Shown one piece after another: positions 34,561-61,811 of a stretch of DNA of 64,000 bases. The DNA is from Candidatus Falkowbacteria bacterium (GTDB lineage: Bacteria; Patescibacteriota; Patescibacteriia; CAIXNZ01). The position numbers were made by a program, and so were the translations under genes. The notes below the pieces were generated by a model. It was not told the DNA's origin, searched no databases, and saw nothing but the letters and a program-made list of their open reading frames with translations. The DNA is taken from contig CAVZGV010000006.1 of NCBI GenBank assembly GCA_963774955.1, positions 8,354-72,353 on the forward strand, in the 5' to 3' direction. Position 1 is the first letter of the stretch. Every line of letters starts with the position of its first letter.

Positions 34561-34699
34561 TATACTCTTATTTTAGCGCATTTTAAGATATTTTTCAAAT
34601 AAAAAAGACAAACCGTCCAATGGTCATTCAGAGCAACGCGTGGAATCCATGAAGTCCTGGATTCTTCGTTACACTCTTAATACGGTTTGTCTTTTTTTA

Positions 34700-35959
<1,260 letters not shown>

Positions 35960-39106: not shown

Positions 39107-39117
39107 AACAATAATTC

Positions 39118-39882: not shown

Positions 39883-39910
39883 AAATTAAGATAAAACTTA
39901 TATCCATTAT

Positions 39911-40690: not shown

Positions 40691-40710
40691 AATTTATAAC
40701 TTTATACTTA

Positions 40711-42174: not shown

Positions 42175-42200
42175 ATATAATTTTAGACAATTTTAACCCA

Positions 42201-43325: not shown

Positions 43326-43330
43326 ATTTA

Positions 43331-44452: not shown

Positions 44453-44461
44453 ATAAAATCA

Positions 44462-45196
44462 TTATTTAATAGTCCACATATCTGAATCCTCATTGTAATC
44501 AGCAAAGCCATTCATGGTCGTATCCATTGGATTCTTAAAATCAATATGAAATTCCGTTATTTCTGTTTTAATTATTCGTTCAGGAAATTTTTTACTTGCC
44601 TGTTTCACGCTGAAAGCGTAATTAAATTCCGGGCTTCCCACCACGGAAAAATTCAGGTTCATTATTCTGCCGTTTTCATCAACCTGTATCTTTTCAAGCA
44701 TAAAATTATACAGGGGCAAATCTACAACCTCTGCTATAAATTCATGAATTTCATCAATGGAAAATTTATGTTTGGAAATTATTTCATTATTTTCATTTAT
44801 TACCTTTTCCACCGCGCGTTTTCCTTCAATAAGTTCTTTCTGTTTTTCAAGTTCGGCGCGCATTTTTTCTCTGACTTTGGGGATTACACCGGTATTTGTC
44901 TCGTTTTTTTCTATAGCTTCCTCAATTTTTTGCAGCTGCCGCCTGATTATTTCCGGCGATACCGGAGATCCCTCACTCTTAATAATTTTTAAAAACCTTA
45001 AAAGCTTGTTATAAGCATTCAGTGCCTTGGAAAGTTCTTTGTTTTTTTCATATTCTTTAGCTTCGTCAATAATCGCCATGATCTGTTCTTTCTGTTCAGG
45101 CGTCAAATCTAAGTCCTTCACCCGGCCCAAAGACTGCCTGGCCATGTTCAGGGACTGAGTATCGTTCCCTTTTAGTTGTTCACTTAATTTTGACAT
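44462..45196 (-). CDS. Paralog P7 (N-module + short beta-module)
   Basis: …TQSLNMARQSLGRVKDLDLTPEQKEQIMAIIDEA… and a C-terminal …GRIMNLNFSVVGSPEFNYAF…. Confidence 0.65.
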   Translation of the reverse strand: MSKLSEQLKGNDTQSLNMARQSLGRVKDLDLTPEQKEQIMAIIDEAKEYEKNKELSKALNAYNKLLRFLKIIKSEGSPVSPEIIRRQLQKIEEAIEKNETNTGVIPKVREKMRAELEKQKELIEGKRAVEKVINENNEIISKHKFSIDEIHEFIAEVVDLPLYNFMLEKIQVDENGRIMNLNFSVVGSPEFNYAFSVKQASKKFPERIIKTEITEFHIDFKNPMDTTMNGFADYNEDSDMWTIK

Positions 45197-45201
45197 ATAT
45201 T

Positions 45202-46365
45202 TTAACTTTTTTCTTTATTGATTACTTTACATCCTTTGGGCAATTTAAGGGCTGCCCTTTTTATCTGTAACCAGCTTAAATTATTGCCAAAACAGACCAA
45301 GCGCTGCAATTTTTTATTTGCGCTTAAATCAGGCAGTTCATCTAATAAATTTTTTGACAAATCAAGTTCCTGCAAATTTACCAGCTGGCTTAAATCGGGT
45401 TTTTCTGTCATAGTATTTTTACTCCATAATAATATCTCGAGTTTTTTCAGATGACTAAAATCCGGAAGCTTAACTAAATGGCAGCCCCGGCAGGAAAGGA
45501 ACTTCAAATTATCCAAACCGGTAAAATCCGGAGAGAAAAGCTTAAGCTCATCGCAGGTCAATTCCTCTAGCTTTGACAAGGTCCTTAAATCAGGGAATTT
45601 GTTGGCTACGCATTCGCTAATATCCAATTTTCTAAGACTTGTTAATTTGGTCAGATCAGGAACTTCAGTATCTCTGCAGGAAAATTGTTCCAGATCCCGC
45701 AAGGCACTGATATCAGGGGTGTCCTTAAATCTGGTGCCATCTAAATTCAAATTTTTTAATTTTTTTAAATTACTAAAATTAATGGGTTCATAGTCCCAAA
45801 AATTATGTGACAGATCCAACTCCTGCAGCTCCTTCAACTCGCTTAAATCGGGAAACTTTAAAAAAAGGTTACGGGTCGAACCGTCTGTAAAAAAATTCAC
45901 CCATTTTATATTTTCCCCGTCATTTTCCGGATTATACAAAGATAATTTAAACTTCACAATATTGCCATTTTGAACTTTAATGTTGTTCTTGATCAAGCCC
46001 CTTATTTCCTCTACATCTTTTTTGTCACCGACAGCTTCAAACAAATCCTCCAAATATCTTTCATACGCTAATAATACTTCCGCCTGTTTGCTTTTTATTT
46101 CAAAACCTTCATAGTTTATAATATCTTTACCTTCCTTAAGCTCTCCTTCTTTTTGCTTTAAAAATTTCATGAGTTTATGATAGACATTCAAAGCCTTGGC
46201 TAAATCCTTATTATCCTCATGCGCTTTAGCCTCCTCAATGAAATTCATTACTTCCGTTTTCTGCTCCGGCGTCAGATCCATTTCCTTAACCCGACCCAAA
46301 GTCTGCCTGGCCATGGCCAGGGCTTGTATTTCCGTGCCTTTAATAGTTTCAGAGTTATTTTTCAT
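45202..46365 (-). CDS. Paralog P8: N-module + leucine-rich repeats
   Basis: …IQALAMARQTLGRVKEMDLTPEQKTEVMNFIEEA… followed by …LSELKELQELDLSHN… LRRs. Confidence 0.7.
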   Translation of the reverse strand: MKNNSETIKGTEIQALAMARQTLGRVKEMDLTPEQKTEVMNFIEEAKAHEDNKDLAKALNVYHKLMKFLKQKEGELKEGKDIINYEGFEIKSKQAEVLLAYERYLEDLFEAVGDKKDVEEIRGLIKNNIKVQNGNIVKFKLSLYNPENDGENIKWVNFFTDGSTRNLFLKFPDLSELKELQELDLSHNFWDYEPINFSNLKKLKNLNLDGTRFKDTPDISALRDLEQFSCRDTEVPDLTKLTSLRKLDISECVANKFPDLRTLSKLEELTCDELKLFSPDFTGLDNLKFLSCRGCHLVKLPDFSHLKKLEILLWSKNTMTEKPDLSQLVNLQELDLSKNLLDELPDLSANKKLQRLVCFGNNLSWLQIKRAALKLPKGCKVINKEKS

Positions 46366-46380
46366 TAAATAAAATATAAT

Positions 46381-47136
46381 TTATTTAAAATCCAGTTCTA
46401 AAGGGACAGCTTGACCAAAATCTATCTTAGAACCAAACCATTGTTTATTGCTCGCATTCCATTTCGCGACTGACCGTTTAATATTTGATTCTCTAAATTT
46501 ATCATCTAACTGTGATCTAAATATATTGTATGCAGATTCACCGAATCTGAAGGGATGATAATAAACGACAAAAACTACGGAGGGATCAGCCGCAATACCG
46601 ATATACAGCTGTACAATCTCATTTTTTTGATTAACCATGCCGTTATAGACAAAAAGATTTTCCGGACGAATATTTTCAGCAGCGCAAACTATTTTCATAA
46701 ATTGATCGGCTGTAAAAAACTTACTACCGATTAAATAGTCTTCATTCTTATCCACTGCATACTTTTCATCTTCTGTCCGTTCCAAAGCGACTAGCTGTTT
46801 TTCCAGGGCTTCTATATATGCTTTTTTATTTCCTATTCTAGATGTAGATATTTCATTAATTTTATTTTTTACCATTTCTGTTTGCCTTTCCTTCAATTTA
46901 TCCTTATCCGCAAAAACATTAACACTCTTAAGATACTCAGAAAGATTAAGGTAAATGTTCAAAGCTTTTGACTTATTCCCTACAGTTTCTGCGTCCTTTG
47001 CCTCGTCAATCATAGCCATAACTTTTTTGTGCTGTTCCGGCGTCAGATCCATTTCCTTAACCCGACCCAAAGCCTGCCTGGCCATTTTTAGTGACTGGGC
47101 TTCTGAAATTTCAGATTTTTCAATTCCTTTGTTCAT
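46381..47136 (-). CDS. Paralog P9 (N-module + short beta-module)
   Basis: …AQSLKMARQALGRVKEMDLTPEQHKKVMAMIDEA…. Confidence 0.65.
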   Translation of the reverse strand: MNKGIEKSEISEAQSLKMARQALGRVKEMDLTPEQHKKVMAMIDEAKDAETVGNKSKALNIYLNLSEYLKSVNVFADKDKLKERQTEMVKNKINEISTSRIGNKKAYIEALEKQLVALERTEDEKYAVDKNEDYLIGSKFFTADQFMKIVCAAENIRPENLFVYNGMVNQKNEIVQLYIGIAADPSVVFVVYYHPFRFGESAYNIFRSQLDDKFRESNIKRSVAKWNASNKQWFGSKIDFGQAVPLELDFK

Positions 47137-47160
47137 AAAAATAATTTCGATACAAACGTG

Positions 47161-48765
47161 CTATTTTTCAACTTGGATCACTTCTCTTACATAGCTATTA
47201 TCCCGCTTGGCAATGAGATAGACGCGCTTATCATCACCGGCTACGGCGTTGAAATGATAGATTGTTTCATATTTCTGGCTGATTCTTTGGCCTTGGACAT
47301 TAACCATAAAAAACTGGCCGTCATTTTCAACCTTAAAAAACATTCGTCCGTTTATCTTTTCGGGGATATATACCTTATCATATTGAGCCCCAATTCTTTG
47401 GCCTTGATCATTAATTAACATTGATTTGCCCTCTGACCTGGCAATAAAAAAAAGTTTATTGCCAATATCTGTCAGTGAACTAACATCATCATATAGCGCA
47501 CCGACTCTTTGGCCTTGGTCATTGACTACAAACCACTTACCATTTATCTTGGCCTTGAAAACTATTTTACCGCTAATATCCTGAGGGTAGCCTGTATCAT
47601 CATACTCCTCACCGACTTTTTGCCCCTGATCATTGATAATAAAACACCTACCCTTATCCTGAACCTTAAAAGCCATTTTACCGCCAATATCCACAGGAGG
47701 GTTTACGTACTCATATTCACCGCCGACTCTTTGGCCTTGATCATTGACTACAAAATTTTTATTACCTGTTTTGGCTGTAAAAGCTATTTTACCGCCAATA
47801 CCCACCAAATAATCTACCTTATCATAAATACCTCCGACTTTTTGTCCTTGGTCATTGACGATAAACCACTTGCCGTCTTTCTTGGCTCTAAACGCAAGTT
47901 TGCCACCGATATCTTGGGGGTCGTCTATGTCTTCATATTCATCGCCCACCCGTTGCTCCTGGTCATTGATAACAAACCACTTATCATTTTTTTTAGCTTT
48001 AAAGGCCAGCTTGCCGCTGATATTTTTAGGCTCACCTACTTTATCATATCTGGCGCCAAATGTTTGACCTTGTTCATTGATTATAACCTGAGTTTCCTTC
48101 TTTCTAACCTGTTTGCTCGCCCTAAAAAATATTTTTCCCTCAATATATTCCAAACTGTCCACATAATCATATTTATGACCGATCCTTTGTCCTTGGTCAT
48201 TGACTATAAACCATTCACCATCACTTTCAGCGCTGAAAGCAAATTTATCACCATCCTGACAGATATCCTCTATGTCGTCATATTTATCTCCAACCTGTTC
48301 GCCCATATCATTAACGATTAGCCACTTGCCGTCTTTTTTGGCTTTAAAAACTATCTTACCGTTAATATTTTGAATTTTGTTATCGTCTACATCTTCATAA
48401 TCTCCTCCGATTTTTTCTCCTTTTTCATTGACTACAAAAATTTTATCTTCTTCCTTGGCCTTAAAAAATATTTTAGCGTTGATATCCTGAGGATTCCAAA
48501 CAGAATCAAAGGAACTTAAATCCACCCCAAATTCCTTAATCTTTTCATTAATTTTCTGCAAAAATCTTACCAGACGCTGATAGACTTTAAAGGCTTGCAA
48601 CTTTTTCTCTAAAATTTCATATTCACTAGCCTCATTAAGCATAGTCATCATTTTTTCTTTTTCTTCAGACGTTAAAGCCATCTCCCTGGTGCGCCCCAAA
48701 GCAGCCCTGGCCATTTCTAGGGACTGATTTTCAGAATTATTCAATTGTGATATTTCTTTTGACAT
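47161..48765 (-). CDS. Paralog P10: N-module + at least 10 tandem ~46-aa WG-like beta repeats (GKxxFKAKxDGKWFIVNDQGQRVGxxYDDV)
   Basis: The start is placed at MSKEISQLNNSENQSLEMARAALGRTREMALTSEEKEKMM… The ORF-track upstream extension overlaps repeat element 1. Confidence 0.65.
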   Translation of the reverse strand: MSKEISQLNNSENQSLEMARAALGRTREMALTSEEKEKMMTMLNEASEYEILEKKLQAFKVYQRLVRFLQKINEKIKEFGVDLSSFDSVWNPQDINAKIFFKAKEEDKIFVVNEKGEKIGGDYEDVDDNKIQNINGKIVFKAKKDGKWLIVNDMGEQVGDKYDDIEDICQDGDKFAFSAESDGEWFIVNDQGQRIGHKYDYVDSLEYIEGKIFFRASKQVRKKETQVIINEQGQTFGARYDKVGEPKNISGKLAFKAKKNDKWFVINDQEQRVGDEYEDIDDPQDIGGKLAFRAKKDGKWFIVNDQGQKVGGIYDKVDYLVGIGGKIAFTAKTGNKNFVVNDQGQRVGGEYEYVNPPVDIGGKMAFKVQDKGRCFIINDQGQKVGEEYDDTGYPQDISGKIVFKAKINGKWFVVNDQGQRVGALYDDVSSLTDIGNKLFFIARSEGKSMLINDQGQRIGAQYDKVYIPEKINGRMFFKVENDGQFFMVNVQGQRISQKYETIYHFNAVAGDDKRVYLIAKRDNSYVREVIQVEK

Positions 48766-48775
48766 ATTTAATTTT

Positions 48776-48865
48776 GGGCGAAAACGGCTGACGGCAAGGA
48801 CCTCTATATGTAGAGACGCGCTGCAGCACGTCTCTACCGTCCGCAAACAACAGCCGTTTTCGCCC
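48776..48865. repeat. GC-rich nested-palindrome intergenic element, copy 1 (GGGCGAAAACGGCTG…GTAGAGAC-N-GTCTCTAC…CAGCCGTTTTCGCCC)
   Basis: Outer 15-bp IR and inner 8-bp IR. GC content contrasts sharply with the AT-rich flanks. Closely related to copy 4. Confidence 0.8.
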
Positions 48866-48884
48866 TAGCAATTACTCTTCATTT

Positions 48885-50174
48885 TTATTCATTTATTAAC
48901 CTTTCGACATTTTCCACCACCCGGTAATATTTCCCGTTTTCAAAACAAATATACATAATTTTCTTGCCGTCAGGACTCCAGGCAACCGTATCAATCTGGA
49001 CATTTTTACCGACTGCCTCTCGGTCATTTATAAAAATCGTCCAGCTCCAAACCTGGTCCTGCACCACTGCGGCAATATTATTGCCGTCAGGACTGTATAA
49101 TATCCTTTCAATGTCAGTAAATTCATTTTCCCAAATCCGACGCCCATTTTCCACGAGAGTATAAGCTTCATCTCCTTTTTTGATCATCGCCGCAATGGCA
49201 ATTCTTTTACTGTCAGGACTATAAACCGGACCGCACTTGCAATCTTCGTAATAATCTACCCAAATCAGCTTATCATTTTCAGCCACGCTATAGCCTTTTG
49301 CATCGTCCAAATAAACAATAGCCACCTTTTTACTATCGGGACTGAATACCGGATAATTACACTCAAAAAAATGATGATCCCATTTTTTACCGTTCACGAT
49401 AATCCCAAAATCATCCGCATCAATCACGCCGCAGGCAAATTGCTGATTATCAGGGCTTAGGGTCGGCCTTTGATAATAATCCGTATCTGACTCTAAAATT
49501 ATTTCCTGATCTTTAATTATTACATCCTTAACAGTCTTATAAACAGGGGATTCATTTCCGTCTTCGTCTTTTTCCATATGATCAATGGCTTTATTTTCTC
49601 CTTTGGCAATGACAGATTTGGCATTGGGTGAAAAAAAGGCCTCCATTTCATCATAATTTTGCGGCCAAATTTCACTATTAACAGCTAGTCCCGCTTTACC
49701 CTGCACAGTCTGAAATCCCACCAAGATAGACTGGCCGTCAGGGCTTATTCTTCGGCTATCGTAATTAATATGAGGAAAATTTCTATTCCACAATGTCTTT
49801 TCATCCTTAACCAAAATTTCACCCGCAGGTCCCTTTACTTTAAAAAGATAATTTTCACCGTCAAGAGAAAATTCAGGAGATTCAATATTTTCCTGGCCGT
49901 GCATTTCTTTCAATTCATGCCAATCAATAATCAAACGCTTGCCTACTTCCCAGTCCCACCGTTCTTTCCAGCGTTCGGCTAAGGGTATTTTTAAATTAGC
50001 CTTGATGGATTCTAAGAATTCCAAAAGTTCCCTGTAAACTTTCAGGGCTTTGACTTTATTTTTTGCAGTTTCAAATTCTCTGGCTTCATCAATCAGATGC
50101 ATCATCAGTTCTTTTTCCTCAGCAGTCATTTCCAACTGATTTATCTGATGCAGACGCTGCCGCGCCATGGCCAT
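48885..50174 (-). CDS. Paralog P11: (5'-eroded) N-module + TolB-like beta-propeller (YSPDGxxIA repeats)
   Basis: MAMARQRLHQINQLEMTAEEKELMMHLIDEA… An upstream in-frame remnant VKEKPQPQSPDEQF has no start codon (1-nt frameshift relative to an ATG). Confidence 0.65.
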   Translation of the reverse strand: MAMARQRLHQINQLEMTAEEKELMMHLIDEAREFETAKNKVKALKVYRELLEFLESIKANLKIPLAERWKERWDWEVGKRLIIDWHELKEMHGQENIESPEFSLDGENYLFKVKGPAGEILVKDEKTLWNRNFPHINYDSRRISPDGQSILVGFQTVQGKAGLAVNSEIWPQNYDEMEAFFSPNAKSVIAKGENKAIDHMEKDEDGNESPVYKTVKDVIIKDQEIILESDTDYYQRPTLSPDNQQFACGVIDADDFGIIVNGKKWDHHFFECNYPVFSPDSKKVAIVYLDDAKGYSVAENDKLIWVDYYEDCKCGPVYSPDSKRIAIAAMIKKGDEAYTLVENGRRIWENEFTDIERILYSPDGNNIAAVVQDQVWSWTIFINDREAVGKNVQIDTVAWSPDGKKIMYICFENGKYYRVVENVERLINE

Positions 50175-50229
50175 AAACTGCTCGTCAGGACTTTGGGGTT
50201 GTGGTTTTTCTTTAACATATTAATTCTTC

Positions 50230-50316
50230 GGGCGAAAACGCCCTGAAATATATTTCACGTAGGGGCGGGTCGCGACCCGCCCCTACGACTGCCGTAGGCA
50301 ACAGGCGTTTTCGCCC
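50230..50316. repeat. GC-rich nested-palindrome element, copy 2 (GGGCGAAAACGCC…GTAGGGGCGGGTCGCGACCCGCCCCTAC…GGCGTTTTCGCCC)
   Basis: Same terminal 11-mers as copies 1, 3 and 4. The inner palindrome is 12 bp. Confidence 0.8.
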
Positions 50317-50341
50317 TACCACTACTTTAGACTTTATGGAC

Positions 50342-50791
50342 TTACAATCTTTCCACCGGTCCCACCAGGCTGAAGAAATTATTATAATTCAGCTTTTCCA
50401 ATTCCTTATCCGTAGAAACTATGATAATATTGCTTTCCTCCGGAATATCTAAAGTCACCCAGTCTTCCAATTTAGAAAATTGCATTCTTTTATCATGAGA
50501 AATCAGATACAATTGGTTATAAATCTTGGGATCAAGATATTCATGGAGCCTGATTATTGCCCATCTTTTATTTTTCATGGCTTCATACAGCCAGTCAATC
50601 TGAGTCTCCGCATCTTTATTCGGAGTTAATTCAAATGAGGTGACCATATTTAAATCAGGGGCCAGATTAGAAATGTCTGCTAAAGTCTCTTTTTTAACGA
50701 CTAAAAGGCCAATTTCCTTGGTCGCAGCCGGCTGTAACCTGCTGACTACTTCATAAAATTTTTTAATTTTTTCAATGTTTTTTGGAGTCAT
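50342..50791 (-). CDS. Hypothetical 149-aa protein upstream-adjacent to VWA/MoxR pair
   Basis: ORF in the same orientation. No family assigned. Confidence 0.45.
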   Translation of the reverse strand: MTPKNIEKIKKFYEVVSRLQPAATKEIGLLVVKKETLADISNLAPDLNMVTSFELTPNKDAETQIDWLYEAMKNKRWAIIRLHEYLDPKIYNQLYLISHDKRMQFSKLEDWVTLDIPEESNIIIVSTDKELEKLNYNNFFSLVGPVERL

Positions 50792-50895
50792 AATGTTTCA
50801 TGATGTTATATTAGGTTTTATAAGGTTATATAAAGTTTATAAGTTGCTTTGTTGGAATTTGTAATAATCTGTATTTGATTTGTAGATTTGTATCA

Positions 50896-52914
50896 TCATT
50901 TTTTCTGAATTAAACCTTTAACCGTATCGCCAATTTGCTGAGCATAATCATCAATATTAATCGAAGGCAGGTTTTTTACCCGCGGCAAAGAATCATCATA
51001 AAACTCTTGGACATGGTCAGTACCCGGACCGATGCCTGTACCCAGCACATACTGTTCACCTTGTCTGGAAATATCTTTAATCACTTCTTTTAACTGTTCG
51101 TTCTTATCTAAATCCGCATATCTTTGAACATCAGTATCAGGTGCCGGAGCCGGCTGTCCGTCAGAAGTCACAATTAAAAACTGACTATCACCGCCTGCAG
51201 CCGCTAAAATCTGACTGGCTTCATCCACGCAATAAGCATCGCTGTTATGACCATTTTCATTATTGGCGCCGGGCCTGCTATTTTTGCCCGCAGCCTCATC
51301 TTTCATGCCGCTCATTCTTTCTCTGACAGCGTCATCCATTTTATCATCAAAATCTTTAAACTTTATCAGCTTATCCTGAAAACCGTAAATGGCCACTTTT
51401 AAATTAGGCAAAGTATTCCCGACCCGTTCCAGAGCCTCGGACAGTAAAACCGCGCTTTTGAAAGCCTCGGCGATTTTTTCACCATCCATGGACCCTGAAA
51501 GATCGATTAACAGTAAAAAAGTAAAAGACTCTCTTTCCAAGGTTTTTCTGGTTTCAAATAATTCCCTATATTCCTTGGTCGCGGCCCATTTCATAGCGCC
51601 TTTGAGGCGCAGACGCTGGCCCGGAAATCTGGTTTTAAATTTGGGAAATCGCTCCAAAATAAAAGCATTAATCAGATCATCAGCCACATCATCAATATAT
51701 TTGGCGACTGATTCATAAGCTTTGTCATATTCACTTTTTTGGGCTTCTAGTTTTTTCTCCAGATCTCTTAAAGTTTTTCTATTTTCCCTTTCTTTGGCCT
51801 TGTCTTCCTTTTTCTTTTCTTCATCCTCTTTCTCTTCCTTGGCTGATTTTTTTTGTTTCACAAAATGACCTTTCAGTTCCTTATTTAAATCATCTTCCAA
51901 CCCGTCCAGACTATCTTCAGCTGCTTTGGCAGCTTTTTCCTCCCATTTTTTCCTGTCTTCTTCTGACAGGCCATCCAGCCATTCCTTTAATTTCTTTTTC
52001 AACTGTTCGCGTAAATCTTCCGGTATTTGATCCAGTGGTAAAGGCTCACCGTTGGCACCTTGACCTTCTTCAGGTAAGTCAAAATTACTGTTTTCAATCA
52101 TGTCCTTGATCTTCTGCCGCATTTCCTCATCTTCAAAAGACTTGTCAATCAGCTGTTCATAAACCGGCCAGATAGTATTGTAAACAAGATTGTAAACTCT
52201 TTTGGCTTGTTCAACTATATCATCCTCCTTGGGATCTTTAATATCCGGCAAAGTCTCATAAGCCAGTTCCGCATACTGATTGGTTTCATCCAGGGCTTCC
52301 TGGACATCTTCAGGTAAATTTTCAGAAAATTTTTGATAAAACCAGTAACGGATAATTTCCAAACCATATTTAATATGTTTAGGCGTATAACCCAGCTTGT
52401 CTTTGGCTTTCATATCCAGATGGTCAACCGGCAAATCCTCCAGATAAACCTGATTCAACCATTCGCGGGCACCCTTGTATTTTTGCATGGCGAAATTATT
52501 AACCCGAGGATCTTCAACCGCATTCATCAGGAAAGAAAAGCCTGTAGTTTGCCAGACATTTTTGGGAATAAAATCCACCCGCGAAATATTACGGTGAGCA
52601 CCTTCATGGGCCAGTACACCCCAGCAATATTCCTTACTTTTTTCTACGATATCAACGGGATCAACCTCAATTTTATTATAAGGTTTGAAAATATAACGCC
52701 AGCCGCGTTCTTTGCCGACTTCAACTTTAACCCCAAAATCCTCGCCAATGACTTTACCCAAGGTAATTAACTCTTCCATTCTTTGTTTGACTTCGGCTGT
52801 CATTTCCGGCTTAGCTTCTGGCGGGACCGTCTGGCTAGATTGATTGGGATTTTCACTCTCTAAATGAAAAGATTGTTCCTTCATATATTTATCTTTATTT
52901 TTTCTTGGGTTCAC
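50896..52914 (-). CDS. DUF2201-like protein: N-terminal putative metallopeptidase-like region (HEGAH = HExxH) + C-terminal VWA domain with MIDAS (DLSGSMDG)
   Basis: 672 aa. Contains …CWGVLAHEGAHRN… and …FLLLIDLSGSMDGEKI…TSDGQP. Overlaps the start of the MoxR gene by 20 nt. Confidence 0.7.
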   Translation of the reverse strand: MNPRKNKDKYMKEQSFHLESENPNQSSQTVPPEAKPEMTAEVKQRMEELITLGKVIGEDFGVKVEVGKERGWRYIFKPYNKIEVDPVDIVEKSKEYCWGVLAHEGAHRNISRVDFIPKNVWQTTGFSFLMNAVEDPRVNNFAMQKYKGAREWLNQVYLEDLPVDHLDMKAKDKLGYTPKHIKYGLEIIRYWFYQKFSENLPEDVQEALDETNQYAELAYETLPDIKDPKEDDIVEQAKRVYNLVYNTIWPVYEQLIDKSFEDEEMRQKIKDMIENSNFDLPEEGQGANGEPLPLDQIPEDLREQLKKKLKEWLDGLSEEDRKKWEEKAAKAAEDSLDGLEDDLNKELKGHFVKQKKSAKEEKEDEEKKKEDKAKERENRKTLRDLEKKLEAQKSEYDKAYESVAKYIDDVADDLINAFILERFPKFKTRFPGQRLRLKGAMKWAATKEYRELFETRKTLERESFTFLLLIDLSGSMDGEKIAEAFKSAVLLSEALERVGNTLPNLKVAIYGFQDKLIKFKDFDDKMDDAVRERMSGMKDEAAGKNSRPGANNENGHNSDAYCVDEASQILAAAGGDSQFLIVTSDGQPAPAPDTDVQRYADLDKNEQLKEVIKDISRQGEQYVLGTGIGPGTDHVQEFYDDSLPRVKNLPSINIDDYAQQIGDTVKGLIQKK

Positions 52915-54349
52915 CCTTACCCATTATTTTACTTTTGGCTTCTGGCGGCAGACCCATGCCCAGCAGATCACCTTTTATGGCGCGAAGCTGTTTTTCCATT
53001 TCCAATAATTCCTGAGCTTCAGCCTTGATCTCAGGTTCCTGAACTTTTATCAGTTCCTCGGCCACTAATTTTAAATCGTCCCGATCTTTCTTATCCTTGC
53101 ATTTATTCATAAATAAATGTTCAATGGCCTCGGTAATCACCTCTTTCATCCGGCCGACCTCATGAAATTTTCTGAGATAATCTTCAAACCTGACCGCGTC
53201 TCTTTGATCAAAAACGAATTTCTGTTCCTGTTTTTGACAAATTGATTTTTTTTCTAGCATTTCAATCCCCTTATAAACAAATTCACTAAATTTATCAGCC
53301 AGGTCAGCCAGCCATTCCTCTTGATAATATGCAGTCATCTTTTTATCTTCAAGTATCGGAGAAAGTGAAAGATAGCGCAAATTTTTCAGTTCCGGTTCTT
53401 GGGGCGTACAGCCGAAACTTAAAGCCACGCGCGATTTAAAAACATTTTTGGGCAATTTGCCAAGATTCTGATAATTCCAACGGGAAATCCATTCAGCTGA
53501 CAAGGGCACACGGCCTTTGAAATCGCCTCCGGGCGGATTAACCGTGGCAAAGAGCCGAAAATCTTTATGGCGAGGAATTACTTTTGAACCGTCTTCATGC
53601 AAAACCAGCTGGCCGCCTTTTTCCAAAACAGCATTTAAACGCACCAGAATCTGAGGTTCGCAGGTATTGACTTCATCCAATACAGACCAGGCTCCCTCCA
53701 GCATCTGTTTAGGTATATCGCCGTTTTGCCAGGCCCATTCGCTTTCCGAGACTTCAATGCCTTCCAACTCGGCAATCTGCTGCATTTCCTTCTTGGTTAA
53801 CCCGATTTTCTGTTTGGCAATGACTTTGGAGTCACTAGGATCGCTTTCTTTTAATTTACTGACATCAATATTCTCTATTTTTGTTTTAGCTTCGATCAAC
53901 TTTCTGGCTTCCTCACTGGTGCACTTTTCCGGATGTTTTAATAAAACGTTAATTTTGTCTTTCAAACCTTCTACCCTGGGAACCCATTTGCCGATCAGGT
54001 CGGTCACATCAGTCTGGCCATTTAAGGACATTCTGTAAACGGGTTTATTTAAAAGCATAGCCAGATATTCCACGGTAATGGTTTTACCAATAGCCTGTTC
54101 ACCCTCAATCATCAGCGGTGAATCCATTTCCACTGCTTTGGCAATATCCTGCAGTAATTTAAGAGAATAATCGTCCAAAGAAAAATCCTCAAAGCGTTCA
54201 GGCTTTGGCACTTTATCGGACGTTTCTCTGTTTTTGAACATCTCAATGCCCAGGATTTTGACCCGATTTTCAAACTCCTGGACCGGTTCTTTTGATTCCT
54301 CCTCAGGCGCTGCCCCCATGCCCGGGATATTCATGTCTGGTGATCTCAT
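52895..54349 (-). CDS. MoxR-like AAA+ ATPase (AAA_5/dynein-related clade) with N-terminal extension and insertion after Walker A
   Basis: Walker A is GEQAIGKT. Walker B is VLDEVN. Sensor region is ATVNPPGG. 484 aa. Confidence 0.75.
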   Translation of the reverse strand: MRSPDMNIPGMGAAPEEESKEPVQEFENRVKILGIEMFKNRETSDKVPKPERFEDFSLDDYSLKLLQDIAKAVEMDSPLMIEGEQAIGKTITVEYLAMLLNKPVYRMSLNGQTDVTDLIGKWVPRVEGLKDKINVLLKHPEKCTSEEARKLIEAKTKIENIDVSKLKESDPSDSKVIAKQKIGLTKKEMQQIAELEGIEVSESEWAWQNGDIPKQMLEGAWSVLDEVNTCEPQILVRLNAVLEKGGQLVLHEDGSKVIPRHKDFRLFATVNPPGGDFKGRVPLSAEWISRWNYQNLGKLPKNVFKSRVALSFGCTPQEPELKNLRYLSLSPILEDKKMTAYYQEEWLADLADKFSEFVYKGIEMLEKKSICQKQEQKFVFDQRDAVRFEDYLRKFHEVGRMKEVITEAIEHLFMNKCKDKKDRDDLKLVAEELIKVQEPEIKAEAQELLEMEKQLRAIKGDLLGMGLPPEAKSKIMGKGEPKKK

Positions 54350-54418
54350 AATTTTAAAGTTAATTTTAATTTTTAATATTGTGTATACCGCTACGCGGCA
54401 TTAGTATTTATCAATTTG

Positions 54419-55192
54419 TTACTCGATTGATTCAAGCGGATTAATATATCTTGTCCATCTGCCGGTACCGTCACCATGATCAGCAAATTCTGCAATAACG
54501 GAAATAGTCCTCGGCTTTTTTTCGGTAAATTTCGACCTGTGGATTACTGTATTACTTGACGAACCTACACTGCCATAACGACCTTTCAAAAAATATTCAT
54601 ACTCAACTTCGGGCAAACCAACCTGTATCAGCTGTAAATGCAGTAAATTCCCTTTGGAATCAATAATTTTCTTGGTGGCAAAAAAGTGGGTATCTGTCAG
54701 GCCTTCAATATCTCCGATAATATCCCTGATTTCTTTTTCCGTAAATACTTTTGATGATTCTATTTCCGCTTTATTAGAATCAATAACTTCGGGTTTAAAA
54801 TCTTGCCATTTAGTAATTAATGATTTTTGGTTCAACAACATTTTTGCCCGGGTTTGACGATATGCAGGCCTAAGCCCATAATTTTTTTCATTATCGGCTA
54901 TGTTCATATCTATTAAATCCAATTGATTTTTGATAATCTCAGGGGTAATTTTATAACCGCTGTTATTTTCAAATTGAATAGTTTGCAATAGATTTAATAG
55001 TTGCTGGTAAATTTTAAAGGCATTTACTCCCCTGCCGGCTTGCTCCTCCGCCTTGGCCTCATCAATCATAGTCATGACTTTTTCCTTTTCTTCCGGCGTT
55101 AAATCCATTTCCTTAACCCGACCCAAAGTCTGGCGAGCCATTTCCAGGGCCTTAGATTCTGAACTTTTAGGTTGTAGTATTTCTTTGGGCAT
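54419..55192 (-). CDS. Paralog P12 (N-module + short beta-module)
   Basis: MPKEILQPKSSESKALEMARQTLGRVKEMDLTPEEKEKVMTMIDEA… and a C-terminal …GNLLHLQLIQVGLPEVEYEYFL…. Confidence 0.65.
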   Translation of the reverse strand: MPKEILQPKSSESKALEMARQTLGRVKEMDLTPEEKEKVMTMIDEAKAEEQAGRGVNAFKIYQQLLNLLQTIQFENNSGYKITPEIIKNQLDLIDMNIADNEKNYGLRPAYRQTRAKMLLNQKSLITKWQDFKPEVIDSNKAEIESSKVFTEKEIRDIIGDIEGLTDTHFFATKKIIDSKGNLLHLQLIQVGLPEVEYEYFLKGRYGSVGSSSNTVIHRSKFTEKKPRTISVIAEFADHGDGTGRWTRYINPLESIE

Positions 55193-55213
55193 AAATTAAT
55201 TAACTTGGGAAAA

Positions 55214-55975
55214 TCAGTCTAAAATTTCCCACATATGCAATTTCATATTATATTTAGCCATTTCTCTGATCTGTCTCTTTCGTTTATCTTGAAGATTAAC
55301 TTCATATTTAATAATCACAGTATCAGTAACATCCTTCTTACCCTTAGTATCTTCAAATATTTCTGACAAATGGATCCGAAAACCGATCTCCGGTTTGCCC
55401 GCTACATGTAAATCCAAATATACCAAATGACCATCCTCATCCAAACCTTTATCATCTAAAAAAAGGGCGCCCTCGGGAAATTTTTCTTGATTTTTGATCA
55501 GATCCCAAATATCTTTTTCTTTTAACACCTCCGGAACATAATTATGTTGTTCTGCGGGAATGTATCTTGTTTTCATTTCAGTTGATTTTAAAACCTGCTT
55601 TCTCTGTGCCTGCAATGCATCAACTCTCTGTAAATTTTCCTCTTTAACCCCTGTAGAGGAAATAAGCATATTTGTTAATTTTATTGTTTGAGCGTCTATC
55701 AAACGTAATTGCCTTTTTGTAATTTCCGGGTCATCTATTATTTCACCTTTGTCTTTCGCCTTTAAATGTTCCAGATGTTTTCTTAATTCCAAATATAGAT
55801 TCAAGGCCTTACTTTTATTACCTGCCTTTTCCTCTGCTATAGCCTTATCAATCATAGCCATGACTTTTTCCTTTTCCTCAGGACTTAAATCCATTTCCTT
55901 GACCCGACCCAAAGTCTGGCGTGCCATTTCCATGGTCTTAGTTTTATTTTTCGGTTGTTCTAAACTTTTTTTCAT
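55214..55975 (-). CDS. Paralog P13 (N-module + short beta-module)
   Basis: …TMEMARQTLGRVKEMDLSPEEKEKVMAMIDKA… and a C-terminal …GHLVYLDLHVAGKPEIGFRIHL…. Confidence 0.65.
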   Translation of the reverse strand: MKKSLEQPKNKTKTMEMARQTLGRVKEMDLSPEEKEKVMAMIDKAIAEEKAGNKSKALNLYLELRKHLEHLKAKDKGEIIDDPEITKRQLRLIDAQTIKLTNMLISSTGVKEENLQRVDALQAQRKQVLKSTEMKTRYIPAEQHNYVPEVLKEKDIWDLIKNQEKFPEGALFLDDKGLDEDGHLVYLDLHVAGKPEIGFRIHLSEIFEDTKGKKDVTDTVIIKYEVNLQDKRKRQIREMAKYNMKLHMWEILD

Positions 55976-55993
55976 AGACTTTAGACTTTTTAA

Positions 55994-56773
55994 CTATATT
56001 TCCGGTTCCCAAATATGTTTGTCTTCGTTATAACTTGCACTAACACCGACGGTTCTCCCGCCCCTTAATATATCCTTAAAATTTACGGTTTTACCCAGGA
56101 TTGTCCTTGGTTCTACAGAATTTCTTTTTGTATCGATTCGATATTTTGCTGCCAGAAAATACTCAAGCTCAATTTCTGGTTTGCCAACAACCCCTAAATT
56201 AAGATAAAGCAAATCACCTTCTTCATCCACGATTTTTTTATCCAAATAAAGATCCGCATCAGACAATTTTTCCCTTTTCTTAATTTCTTCCCAGACCTGT
56301 TTTTCAGTAAGTATTTCCAGCGCAGTTATTTCCACCTCGTTATTGGGCCGTATTTCCGTTTTTAATTTTCTCGCTTGAATTATCACATTTTTCTGGAGCT
56401 TCAAAGCGGCAAACATTTTATTCAAATATTCTAAATCCTTCATGCTTATTTTAGCGCTTGATATTTTATCACTAATCTCATTAATCCTCATATCAACCAG
56501 CAATAATTGCGTTCTGATCATCTCAAGATCATCCAACATTTCACCGGATAAAGCTAATTTAATATCGTCCAAATATTTTTTCAATACCTGATAAATATTT
56601 ATGGCCTGGCTCGGGTTCACCTTTTCAGCCGCCTTAGCCTGATCAATCATAGCCAGCACTTTTTCTTTTTGTTCAGCTGTCAAATCTATTTCCTTGACCC
56701 GACCCAAAGTCTGGCGGGCCATTTCCAGGGCCTGCGATTCGGAGTTCTTCGGTTGTGGCTTTTCTTTGGGCAT
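55994..56773 (-). CDS. Paralog P14 (N-module + short beta-module)
   Basis: MPKEKPQPKNSESQALEMARQTLGRVKEIDLTAEQKEKVLAMIDQA… and a C-terminal …GDLLYLNLGVVGKPEIELEYFL…. Confidence 0.65.
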   Translation of the reverse strand: MPKEKPQPKNSESQALEMARQTLGRVKEIDLTAEQKEKVLAMIDQAKAAEKVNPSQAINIYQVLKKYLDDIKLALSGEMLDDLEMIRTQLLLVDMRINEISDKISSAKISMKDLEYLNKMFAALKLQKNVIIQARKLKTEIRPNNEVEITALEILTEKQVWEEIKKREKLSDADLYLDKKIVDEEGDLLYLNLGVVGKPEIELEYFLAAKYRIDTKRNSVEPRTILGKTVNFKDILRGGRTVGVSASYNEDKHIWEPEI

Positions 56774-56784
56774 AATATTCAGTT

Positions 56785-56923
56785 GGGCGAAAACGCCCTT
56801 TGTCTTTTGTCATTTCGAGCCCTTCGGTTTCACTCAGGGCAAGCTCCGCCGAGAAAGTATTCTTCCGCGGAGTTTACACTAAACGAAGTGAAGTGGTCGG
56901 TATGACAAAGAACGTTTTCGCCC
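56785..56923. repeat. GC-rich nested-palindrome element, copy 3 (longest, ~139 bp, several internal hairpins)
   Basis: GGGCGAAAACGCCCTTTGTCTTTTGTCAT…CTCCGCCGAGAAAGTATTCTTCCGCGGAG…ATGACAAAGAACGTTTTCGCCC. Confidence 0.8.
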
Positions 56924-56934
56924 TACAAACTTAA

Positions 56935-57684
56935 TTAAATGTCAATTATATCCCAATCCTTTTTAGACTCATCATATCTGGCAACTTGAACGCCATGCAC
57001 GGTACTCCCGGTTTCAGGATCCAATTCCAATCTGGCTAACCCTGTTTCCATTGAGGAACCAATATCCTTAAAACTGCCTGCCAAGATATAATTGTATTCC
57101 GTATCAGGTCGGCCGGCTATGCCAACGTTCAATGATAATAGCATGCCGTGTTCATCAACAGCTTTATGAATAATATATATTTTATCCCACTCCGGTCCCG
57201 GCAAACTTGCTAAAACACATATAAGCTCCAGAACATTAGCTTCTGTGGGTATGGTCTTAGCTTCAATTTTTACGTCTTTCTTCGGGACTATCTCTGTTTT
57301 ATCTTCAAGAGGCTGACGAATAATTTTTTTTTGGGACACCAAAACAGTAAATCGTGACTTTTTTGAATTTTCATCAATTTCCTCATTTGTCATTAAGTCA
57401 GCTATCGCCTGATCAACATATTCCAATTGTTTTTTTATTTTATTATGGTCAACATTTTTATCCTGTTCAATCCCCTGCAAAAATTTCTGCAATTGGATAT
57501 AAATTTTTAAGGCTCTGGCTTTATTGCCTGAATTTTCTTCAGCTTTAGCCTGGTCAATCAGGGCCATCATCTTTTCATGTTGCTCCGATGTCAAATCCAT
57601 TTCTTTCACCCGACCCAAAGTCTGCCTGGCCATTTCCAGGGTCTGTGTTTCTGAACTATTTGATTGTGGTTTTTCTTTGGGCAT
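56935..57684 (-). CDS. Paralog P15 (N-module + short beta-module)
   Basis: MPKEKPQSNSSETQTLEMARQTLGRVKEMDLTSEQHEKMMALIDQA… and a C-terminal …GMLLSLNVGIAGRPDTEYNYIL…. Confidence 0.65.
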   Translation of the reverse strand: MPKEKPQSNSSETQTLEMARQTLGRVKEMDLTSEQHEKMMALIDQAKAEENSGNKARALKIYIQLQKFLQGIEQDKNVDHNKIKKQLEYVDQAIADLMTNEEIDENSKKSRFTVLVSQKKIIRQPLEDKTEIVPKKDVKIEAKTIPTEANVLELICVLASLPGPEWDKIYIIHKAVDEHGMLLSLNVGIAGRPDTEYNYILAGSFKDIGSSMETGLARLELDPETGSTVHGVQVARYDESKKDWDIIDI

Positions 57685-57705
57685 AAATTGATTGCTAGGC
57701 GAAAA

Positions 57706-57786
57706 CGGCTGGCGTCAGAGACGTTGGTCGGTAGAGACACGGTTAACCGTGTCTCTACCGTCCGTAAACAACAGCCGTTTTCGCCC
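57706..57786. repeat. GC-rich nested-palindrome element, copy 4
   Basis: AGGCGAAAACGGCTGGCG…GTAGAGACACGGTTAACCGTGTCTCTACCGTCCGTAAACAACAGCCGTTTTCGCCC. About 80% identical to copy 1. Confidence 0.8.
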
Positions 57787-57902
57787 TGTTATAATATTAA
57801 AAAATTACCAACTTCCCCCTGAAATTAGTTATTTTAATAATGTGGATAACACTGATCAATCTATATTAATTTTATCATTTATTAGCCAAAAAAAGAAGGG
57901 GA

Positions 57903-58157
57903 TTACTCCCCCTCAATCTCTTTTAGTGCCCAACCGTCAATTTTGGCTGACCTTACATCAATTTTTAAATTATCTGCTAAGGTTCCTCGAGCCAGCATTT
58001 GCATATTAAAAGCCAGATTTTCTGAATTTATTTCTTCGCCATGTTCAATAACGCTTCCCAGCTCAACCGTAGCTCTGGTCACTTTAGAAAGCTTATTCTG
58101 CCTGGCATATTCCAGGACCAAATTTAAAATTTTATTGGCTTCGTGCAAATCGTGCAT
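57903..58157 (-). CDS. hypA: HypA-like protein, N-terminal (Ni-binding MHE) domain only; C-terminal Cys4 zinc finger absent
   Basis: MHDLHEANKILNLVLEYARQNKLSKVTRATVELGSV…ARGTLA… has HypA architecture. There are no Cys residues and it ends at 84 aa. Followed by a GGGGAGTAATCCCC-T-run hairpin. Confidence 0.5.
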   Translation of the reverse strand: MHDLHEANKILNLVLEYARQNKLSKVTRATVELGSVIEHGEEINSENLAFNMQMLARGTLADNLKIDVRSAKIDGWALKEIEGE

Positions 58158-59948: not shown

Positions 59949-59997
59949 AGGGACTTAGAGTAAGAAGGTTAAGGAGAGTAAGAGGAGTAAGAAGGGG

Positions 59998-60381: not shown

Positions 60382-60501
60382 AAATTAAATTAATTAAAAT
60401 AAAACCATATTACACATCTTCCCGTCGCTACCCATCTTTCCCAAATTTCATAAAAACCCAACTTCCTCTTCTTCCTCATCTCTACCCATCTCTCCCTTCT
60501 C

Positions 60502-61776: not shown

Positions 61777-61811
61777 AATAAAAGCTGCTATTTAAATTAT
61801 TTTAAATACCT

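Follow-up and report, generated by a model that had tools for sequence, protein, structure and literature searches.

Among the described systems closest to the elements reported here are the REP, BIME and REPIN repeats of Proteobacteria, which are mobilised by RAYT Y1 transposases. These are GC-rich intergenic palindromes of operon spacers, which form long hairpins as inverted doublets, produce no target-site duplication, have a mosaic, modular build in BIMEs, and vary in presence between strains. The Correia (CREE/NEMIS) and ERIC/IRU repeats, which are transcribed and MITE-like, measure about 100–150 bp and carry terminal inverted repeats; they, too, lie in intergenic spacers, are co-transcribed, fold into stem-loops and fall into size classes with different interiors. 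Roles at the RNA level, as terminators, stabilisers or processing sites, have been established for REP, ERIC and Correia repeats. In the following, we describe a family of small, dispersed repeats in bacteria of the candidate phyla radiation (CPR), which resembles both groups in these respects and is apparently undescribed so far.

In the window, by which we mean the whole 64-kb stretch of DNA analysed, the exact 10-mer GGCGAAAACG occurs eight times and exclusively as four inverted pairs (48777/48855, 50231/50306, 56786/56913 and 57698/57776), compared to a mean of 0.11 matches in dinucleotide shuffles, none of which reaches eight. Each pair is the closing stem of a very stable nested hairpin within a short gap between minus-strand genes (Table 1), with folding energies of -54 to -68 kcal/mol and z-scores of -6 to -10.6 on either strand. 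An earlier note had described these four GC-rich nested palindromes with identical inverted termini, and our analysis bears this out, along with the inner palindromes (e.g. GTAGAGAC..GTCTCTAC at 48810-48837 in copy 1 and TTTGTCAT..ATGACAAA in copy 3) and the similarity of copies 1 and 4, estimated at about 80% and measured at 79%. Other details are to be amended. The boundaries given for copies 1–3 are correct, but copy 4 starts at 57697 with an A (AGGCGAAAACG), not at 57706; the GC contents of copies 1–4 are 59, 62, 50 and 57%, so that the proposed 60–65% does not apply to copy 3; and the shared terminus, given as an 11-13-mer, comprises 11 bases in all four copies and a 14-base consensus across the family. 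All four copies do lie in intergenic gaps, but since the surrounding genes are all on the minus strand, copy 4 is located upstream of the array gene P15 and not after it. The copies are part of a variable island, which is missing from a syntenic contig (L203); there, pgk comes directly after the hypA-like gene.

Table 1. Positions of the four elements, their inner palindromes and neighbouring features in the window
Feature	Positions	Strand	Description
Copy 1	48776..48865	.	90 bp; clamp arms GGGCGAAAACGGCTG / CAGCCGTTTTCGCCC; type-A core; PD40 beta-propeller paralog stop (48885) on one side, ATG 48765 on the other
Copy 1, type-A palindrome	48810..48837	.	28 nt, GTAGAGACGCGCTGCAGCACGTCTCTAC; one G-T position
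Copy 2	50230..50316	.	87 bp; clamp GGGCGAAAACGCCC / GGCGTTTTCGCCC; type-A core; 149-aa ORF (stop 50342) on one side, PD40 paralog on the other
Copy 2, type-A palindrome	50259..50286	.	28 nt, perfect, GTAGGGGCGGGTCGCGACCCGCCCCTAC
Copy 3	56785..56923	.	139 bp; clamp around long type-C-like hairpin core; P15 (stop 56935) on one side, P14 (ATG 56773) on the other
Copy 3, type-C-like core	56809..56906	.	GTCATTTCGAG ... GGTATGAC
Copy 4	57697..57786	.	90 bp; first feature of paralog array; presumed 5' leader, 12 nt upstream of P15 ATG (57684)
Copy 4, type-A palindrome	57731..57758	.	28 nt, perfect, GTAGAGACACGGTTAACCGTGTCTCTAC
Sigma-70-like promoter match	57831..57859	-	TTGATC-17-TAAAAT, between terminator and copy 4; consensus match only
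Intrinsic terminator	57885..57914	-	Canonical, GC hairpin then T7; ends hypA-like gene upstream of copy 4
Variable island	38393..57786	-	Holds paralog array, MoxR/VWA block and all four elements
Fifth, related nested element	34594..34704	.	Different outer stem; just after enolase stop

Further copies, which the earlier note had proposed to look for, are plentiful: public scans with the paired termini retrieved at least 118 genome loci and 92 metagenome loci. The low-GC scan loci and the four window copies together represent 89 distinct members, on contigs of 32–45% GC. Almost all originate from low-GC Patescibacteria/CPR contigs, with record names including Uhrbacteria, Parcubacteria, Falkowbacteria, Buchananbacteria and 'Patescibacteria group'. 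Common to all is an outer stem, the clamp, formed by inverted copies of GGGCGAAAACG[C/G]C[C/T]; the consensus of its arms is a 14-mer, of which the search pattern fixed 11 bases, so that the invariance of these bases across lineages is partly an ascertainment effect. The elements have sharp boundaries, as complementarity ends exactly at GGGCG/CGCCC in 73 of 85, and only 5 of 85 have matching 2-mers in their flanks, which means that insertion leaves no target-site duplication. Within the clamp, the elements hold an exchangeable core of one to three hairpins, for which at least four module types can be recognized. Type A is a GTAG...CTAC palindrome, always 28 nt long, with many different centres; type B consists of two hairpins whose loops are complementary (CTTTAG/CTAAAG), with TTAC...GTAA as its borders. 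This combination of a clamp and an exchangeable core is unusual.

Copies are gained, lost and left to decay. Their presence varies between strains that are 93–99% identical: the element at L059:3033, for instance, is missing from two such contigs (L141/L153) as well as from four more distant syntenic loci. Likewise, contig L168 carries an element at a site that is vacant in the syntenic window, one orthologous site in an unbiased sample is occupied in one of three genomes, and the clamp at L157:7371-7470 has decayed. Whole composites have also been copied to unrelated sites, where interiors of 95–99% identity are found between unrelated flanks, both in within-contig pairs (L088, L193, L150/L160) and between contigs (L168 versus L173 and L189). 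Conversely, cores have been swapped within a conserved clamp: L156 and L194 share identical clamp arms and flanks that are, by eye, about 95% identical, but have cores of type B and type C, respectively, and L148/L128 and L174/L190 follow the same pattern. We therefore find it likely that the four window elements belong to a CPR/Patescibacteria family of non-coding intergenic palindromic repeats of about 80–140 bp, which is mobile DNA of the REP/BIME/MITE kind and probably selfish. The suggestion of a MITE- or REP-like element in the earlier note is thus well founded, given the dispersal of the family, its variable presence in near-identical strains and its identical copies at unrelated sites; the elements are, however, not classical MITEs, because no target-site duplications accompany them.

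The cores themselves point to several parents. GIY-YIG genes (PF01541, E about 2e-16) are found in the L169 contig, inside the loop of a type-C hairpin, and in L141, between type-D hairpins, as an insertion that is missing from L059. The left arm of copy 3 (56806-56855) matches the hairpin arm at L169:13116-13172 in 44 of 49 aligned bases, with one 8-nt gap. In L092, the two type-B hairpins, and not clamps, enclose a Y1_Tnp gene (PF01797, 33 bits, cut-off 23), which is 242 nt away from a clamp element. Judging by these sequence matches, some interiors are derived from tiny mobile elements carrying a nuclease or transposase: types C and D would be gene-less remnants of the end-hairpins of GIY-YIG nuclease genes, and type B that of the end-hairpin pair of a Y1/IS200-like (RAYT-like) transposase gene. 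Among the ORFs examined in the window, we found neither Y1 nor GIY-YIG genes, and no clamp-flanked ORF is present in about 0.7 Mb of family loci. Relative to transcription, type-C cores are mildly biased in their orientation (12 versus 4 by our own count, with counts that are not independent).

Modules are also found alone within other GC stems, canonical terminators among them. Types C and D are seen in the loops of such stems, which gives rise to a nested-hairpin architecture, and in the window, the fifth element consists of a canonical bidirectional terminator (AAAAAAGACAAACCGT / ACGGTTTGTCTTTTTT) whose loop holds a truncated type-C-like module. Such cases invite a different reading, in which the clamp, a repeated GC hairpin already in residence, serves as a preferred landing or homing/recombination site, and only the modules are mobile; unrelated hairpin-targeting modules of the GIY-YIG, Y1 and GTAG type would enter at its apex, leave it again or take one another's place. 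The core swaps described above fit this picture, as does a site adjacent to rsmI, where at least eight genomes have a clamp element with four different cores (A, B, C and D); the persistence of this site could reflect either the long-term retention of a useful hairpin or a strong insertion hot spot. Further points in its favour are the same core with opposite orientations relative to rsmI in L137 and L157 and a near-empty clamp with a 14-nt loop at L092:7597. Yet this is the only near-empty clamp found, and the composites repeated at unrelated sites are 95–99% identical including the clamp, which therefore travels with its core. Moreover, a clamp that is only a target leaves its own repetition without explanation, and its 14-bp arms are short for RecA-dependent exchange. 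On balance, we consider this reading unlikely, albeit the foremost of the alternatives.

For the favoured family of mobile repeats, spread would act on DNA hairpins or cruciforms and would not involve a DDE transposase. Candidate routes are a Y1 (HUH) transposase acting in trans, or nuclease-triggered repair and gene conversion through the clamp arms.

Another reading is that of a selected cis-acting structure in operon transcripts, such as a factor-independent or partial terminator, a 3'-end stabilizer that protects against exonucleases, an RNase III processing site or a translational-coupling hairpin, the latter because only 10–12 nt separate the hairpin from the next start codon. The stems are highly stable, the window copies are found 10–25 nt past stop codons and 10–12 nt before start codons without a Shine-Dalgarno sequence, the imperfect stem positions of copies 1, 3 and 4 form G-U pairs on the sense strand, and effects of this sort are established for the REP, ERIC and Correia repeats. 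Against this, the sense strand lacks a U-tract downstream of the stem. Canonical terminators are present at other places in the genome, and the one upstream of copy 4 indicates that ordinary terminators are in use and that copy 4 is not one of them; in L158, the element even comes after an intact terminator. Across the family, the elements show no preference for the vicinity of stops over that of starts (median distances of 33.5 and 29 nt), are also found between convergent and between divergent genes, and are free of sense-strand bias in wobble pairs (13 versus 10 wobble-compatible positions) and in stability (sense strand more stable in 23 versus 26 cases). Their variable presence in near-identical strains and the decay of some copies likewise argue against such a role. 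The terminators or mRNA-stabilizing hairpins envisaged by the earlier note are thus an improbable reason for the existence of these elements. As mobile repeats, they may still affect mRNA, and we consider some putative effect likely. Those in the window are probably co-transcribed with the array genes, and copy 4, which lies between the terminator and promoter-like site and the P15 start codon, would be transcribed as a leader. The resulting RNA would form very stable stem-loops 10–12 nt ahead of the next start codon, with possible consequences for the decay and processing of mRNA or for translational coupling; such hairpin effects are probably by-products.

Site-specific recombination sites of the attC or Xer type, delimiting cassettes such as copy4-P15-copy3 and copy2-P11-copy1, are a more doubtful proposition still. 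These two are the single genes bracketed by elements in the window. Integron attC sites (about 57–141 bp) are similar in that they are imperfect palindromes of comparable length, whose base is conserved while the terminal structure varies, and that they lie between genes pointing the same way. Genes are indeed gained, lost or reordered next to elements: rdgB is precisely present or absent beside one in contigs of 97% identity, and in L135 and L137, the order of ORF160 and a lipase gene is swapped, and the junction holds a partial element. However, the elements have no attC signature. They do not match the R''/R' consensus (RYYYAAC/GTTRRRY) beyond AAC/GTT or have an R/L box consensus, and their stems are perfect, with neither extrahelical bases nor an unpaired central spacer. 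No integrase, IntI included, was found among the ORFs at 46–60.5 kb or among the 25 most frequent of the 122 Pfam families matched by genes next to the 89 elements; the neighbouring genes are ordinary housekeeping genes, and most elements lie between such genes and are not part of cassette arrays. Besides, most variable genes have an element on just one side. The idea of exchange sites for the paralog array is not supported in the form given by the earlier note, although interiors are exchanged within clamps and genes are rearranged nearby; rearrangements within the array are probably promoted by the elements, given that they are dispersed repeats.

Lastly, the earlier note had considered a small structured RNA. 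A tRNA-like RNA or ribozyme gene defined by the conserved closing stem might be suspected from copy 2, which folds into a cloverleaf-like four-way junction, and from the first 7 bp of the clamp, which in our own observation resemble an acceptor stem. Yet the cores are unrelated from copy to copy, the design is strand-symmetric, the elements lack both a promoter and a terminator of their own, Rfam yields nothing up to an E-value of 10, and ARAGORN detects no tRNA-like gene in the window. This reading is poorly supported and hardly credible.

As with REP and RAYT, Y1_Tnp genes occur in genomes that have clamp elements. In contrast to REP, the conserved unit of the clamp family is just 11–14 nt long, and its self-hairpin would have a stem of only 5 bp; the spacer measures 55–117 nt and contains unrelated, exchangeable hairpin modules; a conserved flanking GTAG is absent and GTAG is found inside the type-A core instead; no clamp-flanked RAYT was found; the hosts are CPR bacteria; and the density looks low, with one clamp pair per 62 kb in an unbiased sample. 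MITEs in general produce target-site duplications, as do Correia elements with their TA target, unlike the clamp family, whose cores are unrelated module types instead of deletion variants of one sequence; about 0.7 Mb of family loci yielded no parent IS that shares the clamp inverted repeats. The miniature elements derived from IS200/IS605 (PATEs), with their subterminal hairpins, also lack target-site duplications and resemble the type-B core in its hairpin pair, complementary loops, TTAC...GTAA borders and position beside the Y1_Tnp gene of L092, but this likeness is limited to that core and does not extend to the clamp, and the window copies have type-A and type-C cores. Finally, the type-C and type-D modules in the loops of GC-rich stems suggest that modules target stem apices, in the manner of IS1397/ISKpn1 in REP loops and of class C group II introns after terminators; the units, however, are not IS3-family elements or introns, but tiny hairpin modules or hairpin-bracketed GIY-YIG/Y1 genes.

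In the reading that the evidence supports best, the four nested-hairpin elements of the window (copies 1-4) belong to a family of REP/BIME/MITE-like selfish repeats of candidate-phyla-radiation (CPR) bacteria, in which a conserved clamp, i.e. a pair of inverted outer arms, encloses an exchangeable core. The earlier note had located all four correctly except for the start of copy 4, which lies at 57697, with an A and not a G. The inner palindromes are present as it described them, and copies 1 and 4, for which it gave about 80% identity, are 79% identical. The elements are indeed GC islands between flanks of 36-41% GC, but the claimed 60-65% does not hold for copy 3. Across the 64 kb of the window, there are eight exact matches to the 10-mer GGCGAAAACG, solely as four inverted pairs, against a mean of 0.11 matches under dinucleotide shuffles, which never reached eight. 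Because the 10-mer is never found singly there, we rejected the idea that it is a DNA-uptake sequence. On either strand, the folding energy per element ranges from -54 to -68 kcal/mol (z-scores -6 to -10.6).

The clamp consists of two inverted copies of a 14-mer with the arm consensus GGGCGAAAACG[C/G]C[C/T], and the self-complementary GGGCGAAAACGCCC accounts for 68% of the arms. Outer stems are perfect over 11-21 bp, free of bulges; in 73 of 85 elements, the outer GGGCG/CGCCC is precisely where complementarity ends. The interiors fall into at least four recognizable types. Type A is a 28-nt palindrome (GTAGRGR...YCYCTAC), usually placed between two small hairpins; type B, absent from the four window copies, is a pair of hairpins whose loops read CTTTAG and CTAAAG, with TTAC...GTAA at the borders; type C is a long hairpin (GTCATYCTGA...TCRGRATGAC); and type D, likewise absent from these copies, comprises two hairpins, GTCACCCTGAG..GGGTGAC and GTCATGGTTCGA..CACCATGAC. 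Type-A cores measure exactly 28 nt in 17 of 20 cases (two have 29 nt and one 30), 12 of the 20 are perfect palindromes, and their centres are highly diverse, which together argues that palindromy is maintained through compensatory change.

Positions of the elements, as read from the sequence, and of further features of the window
Feature	Position	Strand	GC (%)	Description
Copy 1	48776-48865		59	type-A core
Copy 2	50230-50316		62	type-A core
Copy 3	56785-56923		50	type-C core
Copy 4	57697-57786		57	type-A core
Fifth nested palindrome	34594-34704			different outer stem; just past enolase stop
Canonical terminator	57914-57885	minus		ends hypA-like gene
Promoter-like site	57859-57831	minus		consensus match; between terminator and copy 4
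Segment missing from contig L203	38393-57786			paralog array, MoxR/VWA block, all four elements
Conserved N-terminal codons of PD40 paralog	50174-50225			..KEKPQPQSPDEQF..; in frame with ORF, no in-frame start upstream
ATG of PD40 paralog	50218-50216			one base out of frame relative to its paralogs
Counterpart of 972-bp P15 contig	56787-57758			Logan contig, run ERR12035938
Stretch without long ORF	61777-63091			1.3 kb; several GC-rich hairpins
Canonical terminator within this stretch	~62462-62500
Module-like sequence within this stretch	62609-62722			GCCCTTCGACTCGCTCCGCTCGCTCAGGGCAGGCTC
Structured region within this stretch	62820-62960
23S rRNA intervening-sequence protein gene	59998-60381			PF05635
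Purine-rich and pyrimidine-rich tracts	59950-59997, 60465-60505			flank PF05635 gene; partial complementarity over 17 nt (82%)
L10 leader; tandem pair of SAM riboswitch aptamers	16073-16216 and 19528-19834	minus		Rfam gathering matches

Further copies, sought beyond the window, were found in many public genome and metagenome loci. When one genome per species was scanned for the pattern GGCGAAAACG-N50-80-CGTTTTCGCC, at least 118 loci matched; a metagenome scan with the 11-mers matched 92, and a viral-contig scan for the paired termini gave no matches. About a quarter of the matches are non-members that arise by chance in high-GC coding DNA or belong to a separate high-GC palindrome family. The low-GC remainder and the four window copies amount to at least 89 distinct elements on contigs of 32-45% GC, with record names including Candidatus Uhrbacteria, Parcubacteria, Falkowbacteria, Buchananbacteria and 'Patescibacteria group'. 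Two contigs labelled as Gammaproteobacteria are probably mislabelled, judging by their sequence (35% GC, 72-80% identical to Uhrbacteria loci). Neither Rfam nor the full-text literature searched holds a description of the clamp family, although accounts outside that literature are possible. The separate palindromic family (AAAGGGCGAAAACGCGAAA...TTTCGCGTTTTCGCCCTTT) contains the same 11-mer and resides on Planctomycetes-like contigs of 60-72% GC (L039, L075, L129, L138, L142, L155, L159 and L166); a related form of it with CGAAAAC repeats is seen in Thermoguttaceae loci.

Ninety of the 98 unique low-GC matches lie between genes. The gene neighbours of the 89 elements are housekeeping genes (among them DnaK, SecA, SHMT, TGT, enolase, TsaD, UvrD and transketolase), and the commonest Pfam families among neighbours elsewhere likewise have housekeeping functions, so that the association with the paralog array is a peculiarity of this window.

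The cores are exchanged within otherwise matching sites. Loci L156 and L194 have identical clamp arms and are, by eye, about 95% identical over 70 nt on both sides, yet the former carries a type-B and the latter a type-C core; the pairs L148/L128 and L174/L190 follow the same pattern. Depending on the genome, the core at the site next to rsmI is of type A, B, C or D, and the core that L137 and L157 share is reversed with respect to rsmI in one of the two, as an inversion between the clamp arms would explain. Some other GC stems likewise have type-C modules in their loops, among them a canonical terminator (AAAAAACAGCCCGC...GCGGGCTGTTTTTT) in L044. The window itself contains a fifth nested palindrome of this broad class (-38 kcal/mol, z-score -6.0), a canonical bidirectional terminator whose loop encloses a truncated type-C-like module; L158, at the orthologous position, has the intact terminator and then a clamp element.

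Some hairpins of these types enclose genes. In L141, a GIY-YIG gene (PF01541) lies between two type-D hairpins as a 480-bp insertion absent from L059, and a second one occupies the apical loop of an L169 type-C hairpin, of which one arm matches the left arm of copy 3 at 44 of 49 aligned bases, with one 8-nt gap. Y1_Tnp genes (PF01797) were seen in three family loci and not among the window ORFs examined. The one in L092 is bracketed by two type-B hairpins, not by clamps, 242 nt from a clamp element; a second gene type occurs in L102 and, split, in L190, with Pfam confirmation for L102 only. All of these genes were first detected with approximate IS200 and RAYT queries, and those of L092 and L102 were then confirmed independently with Pfam. 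It is part of the best-supported reading that some cores derive from hairpin-bracketed GIY-YIG and Y1 mini-elements. No long-range clamp pair encloses an ORF or transposase in about 0.7 Mb of family loci, where the search gave nothing but lone clamp termini, in L137 and L146.

Several further hairpin-rich sites were noted in passing. Between rsmE and the hypA-like gene, L203 carries a type-B two-hairpin module without clamp (4190-4250; GGGCACTTTAGTGCCC and GCGGACTGAAGTCCAC), and the window has an acyltransferase gene at the equivalent position. Within the window, a stretch without long ORF (61777-63091) matches no Rfam family at gathering score. The PF05635 gene could, given the tracts on its two sides, be another ORF in a hairpin loop; in L148 and L128, clamp elements have similar polypyrimidine tracts next to them.

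A MITE/REP-like mobile role, one of those suggested in the earlier note, is supported by presence and absence between near-identical strains, by decay and by dispersal to unrelated flanks. The element at L059:3033 is absent from contigs with 93-99% identical flanks and from four more distant syntenic loci; that of L168, 7 nt after tgt, is missing from the syntenic site of the window, and that of L201 from L157. Where the clamp is intact in L059, L157:7371-7470 reads GAATGAAAACGCC...GGCGTTTTCGCTT, and composites with 95-99% identical interiors have unrelated flanks, even in pairs on one contig. In an unbiased sample, for which the site downstream of rsmI was fetched by protein search and not by the clamp pattern, one of three genomes carries the element, and there is one clamp pair per 62 kb; the window has four per 64 kb, all within one island. 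Target-site duplications are lacking: the two flanks agree in their 2-mers in 5 of 85 elements and over longer stretches in 2 of 85. Because of this and the strand-symmetric, fully palindromic design, we infer that clamps would be copied by a mechanism directed at DNA hairpins or cruciforms, for which a trans-acting Y1 transposase and nuclease-triggered conversion are candidate routes.

Between about 38 kb and 61 kb, every gene lies on the minus strand, and here the elements occupy otherwise short AT-rich spacers, 10-25 nt past the preceding stop codon and 10-12 nt ahead of the next ATG, which has no Shine-Dalgarno sequence; element-free junctions of the array span just 15-25 nt. Since they sit inside a same-strand array, the elements are likely co-transcribed with the flanking genes and, if so, must form very stable stem-loops beside start codons. 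On this model, mRNA stability, processing or translational coupling could plausibly be affected, probably as a side effect. Copy 4 was said to lie 'after P15'; it does adjoin this paralog gene, but in terms of transcription it lies upstream of the P15 ATG. It is preceded in that direction by the terminator of the hypA-like gene and then by the promoter-like site, so that it is most likely a leader sequence, insofar as the consensus match marks a promoter.

Two of the earlier proposals for the transcript fared less well. An intrinsic terminator is a GC hairpin followed by a U-tract, and no window element has such a tract on the sense strand, where the 3' flanks read AAAATTAAAT, GAAGAATTAAT, AACTGAATATT and TAGCAATCAATTT; within them, a terminator scan flags only a mini-hairpin of 5 bp on the antisense strand of copy 3. 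As for a small structured RNA, nothing at the elements reaches the gathering score in Rfam 15 (the best permissive match scores 18.6 bits against a threshold of 163 bits), and ARAGORN finds no tRNA-like gene. Across the family, wobble pairs and fold energies give no sense-strand RNA signal: in co-directional contexts, wobble-compatible stem positions number 13 on the sense and 10 on the antisense strand, and the more stable fold is that of the sense strand in 23 cases and of the antisense strand in 26. Furthermore, the elements are no nearer to stop codons than to start codons and are also found between convergent (7) and divergent (6) genes.

Three observations would suit a possible further role in recombination, which the earlier note envisaged for the paralog array. 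First, two contigs of 97% identity (L044:1435-1543 versus L145:4861-5596) differ precisely by the presence of the rdgB/Ham1 gene (603 bp), the difference extending from 14 nt past a clamp element to just ahead of the ruvA start. Second, ORF160 (160 aa) and a GDSL lipase gene have swapped order between L137:627-1296 and L135:4885-6160; in L137, ORF160 is bracketed by a full element and, at the junction, a partial one (half a type-D hairpin and the right clamp arm), and an ORF160 homologue lies 15 nt from an element in L126. Third, P15 has an element on either side in the window, and so does the PD40 paralog. The island that contains them is missing from the syntenic metagenome contig L203, where pgk directly follows the hypA-like gene, and the P15 family has only four matches among 5.8 billion proteins, all on one 294-kb contig.

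The array genes fuse an N-terminal module of about 60 aa (..LEMARQTLGRVKEMDLTPEQKEKVMAMIDEAKA..) to very different C-termini, including LRR, PD40 propeller and repeat domains. The reading frame at the beginning of the PD40 paralog, without an in-frame start and with its ATG out of frame, suggests a frameshifted start or a shortened protein. The sole other assembly with P15 is a 972-bp contig that, by coordinate arithmetic, ends inside copies 4 and 3, suggesting that the palindromes break short-read assemblies.

CPR genomes, of about 1 Mb, are usually described as poor in mobile DNA. Repeats common to several CPR lineages, with cores turning over between near-identical strains, point to active mobile-element dynamics on a small scale. 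The link of the cores to GIY-YIG and Y1 genes also bears on unexplained GC-rich hairpins (GTCACCCTGAG..., GTCATTCTGAG..., GTAGAGAC...) of the kind that probably litter many uncultivated genomes and yield spurious ORFs. In practical terms, the elements mark rearrangement-prone points and may break assemblies, and stable structures ahead of starts without Shine-Dalgarno sequence matter for annotation and for the expression of the paralog array. A bolder idea, which we consider rather improbable, is that the clamp serves specifically for exchange, as a short GC hairpin or cruciform which several unrelated modules of GIY-YIG, Y1 and GTAG type recognize, enter and replace each other in. If it were true, CPR genomes would hold a few 'docking hairpins' with contents turning over between strains, which could also give rise to insertion, loss and shuffling of the genes next to them, for example in the paralog island, and would represent a new ecosystem of nested, structure-targeted mobile elements, possibly even a new recombination system.

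Among known systems, integron attC sites would fit a role in cassette exchange; they come with an adjacent intI integrase or an array of promoterless gene cassettes. Their R''/R' boxes (RYYYAAC/GTTRRRY) agree with the clamp arms (CGAAAAC/GTTTTCG) only in AAC/GTT, and they feature extrahelical bases and an unpaired central spacer, unlike the perfect outer stems of the clamp. With no integrase among the ORFs at 46-60.5 kb and neither the R-box consensus nor extrahelical bases present, we rejected this identity. Correia/ERIC-type repeats are co-transcribed with flanking genes, and their stem-loop is processed by RNase III or RNase E. MITEs share terminal inverted repeats with the clamp elements and have an autonomous parent element with the same repeats, but each of their copies is flanked by target-site duplications; a classical MITE is excluded, since these are lacking here. 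REP/BIME/REPIN sequences differ in the conserved tetranucleotide 5' of the palindrome (GTAG in E. coli), of which the clamp flanks show none; they number tens to hundreds per genome, and their cognate RAYT gene, which encodes a Y1 transposase, resides in the same genome and is itself flanked by repeats. What the clamp elements have in common with them is the basic design: short, GC-rich intergenic palindromes, arranged as inverted doublets that form a hairpin.
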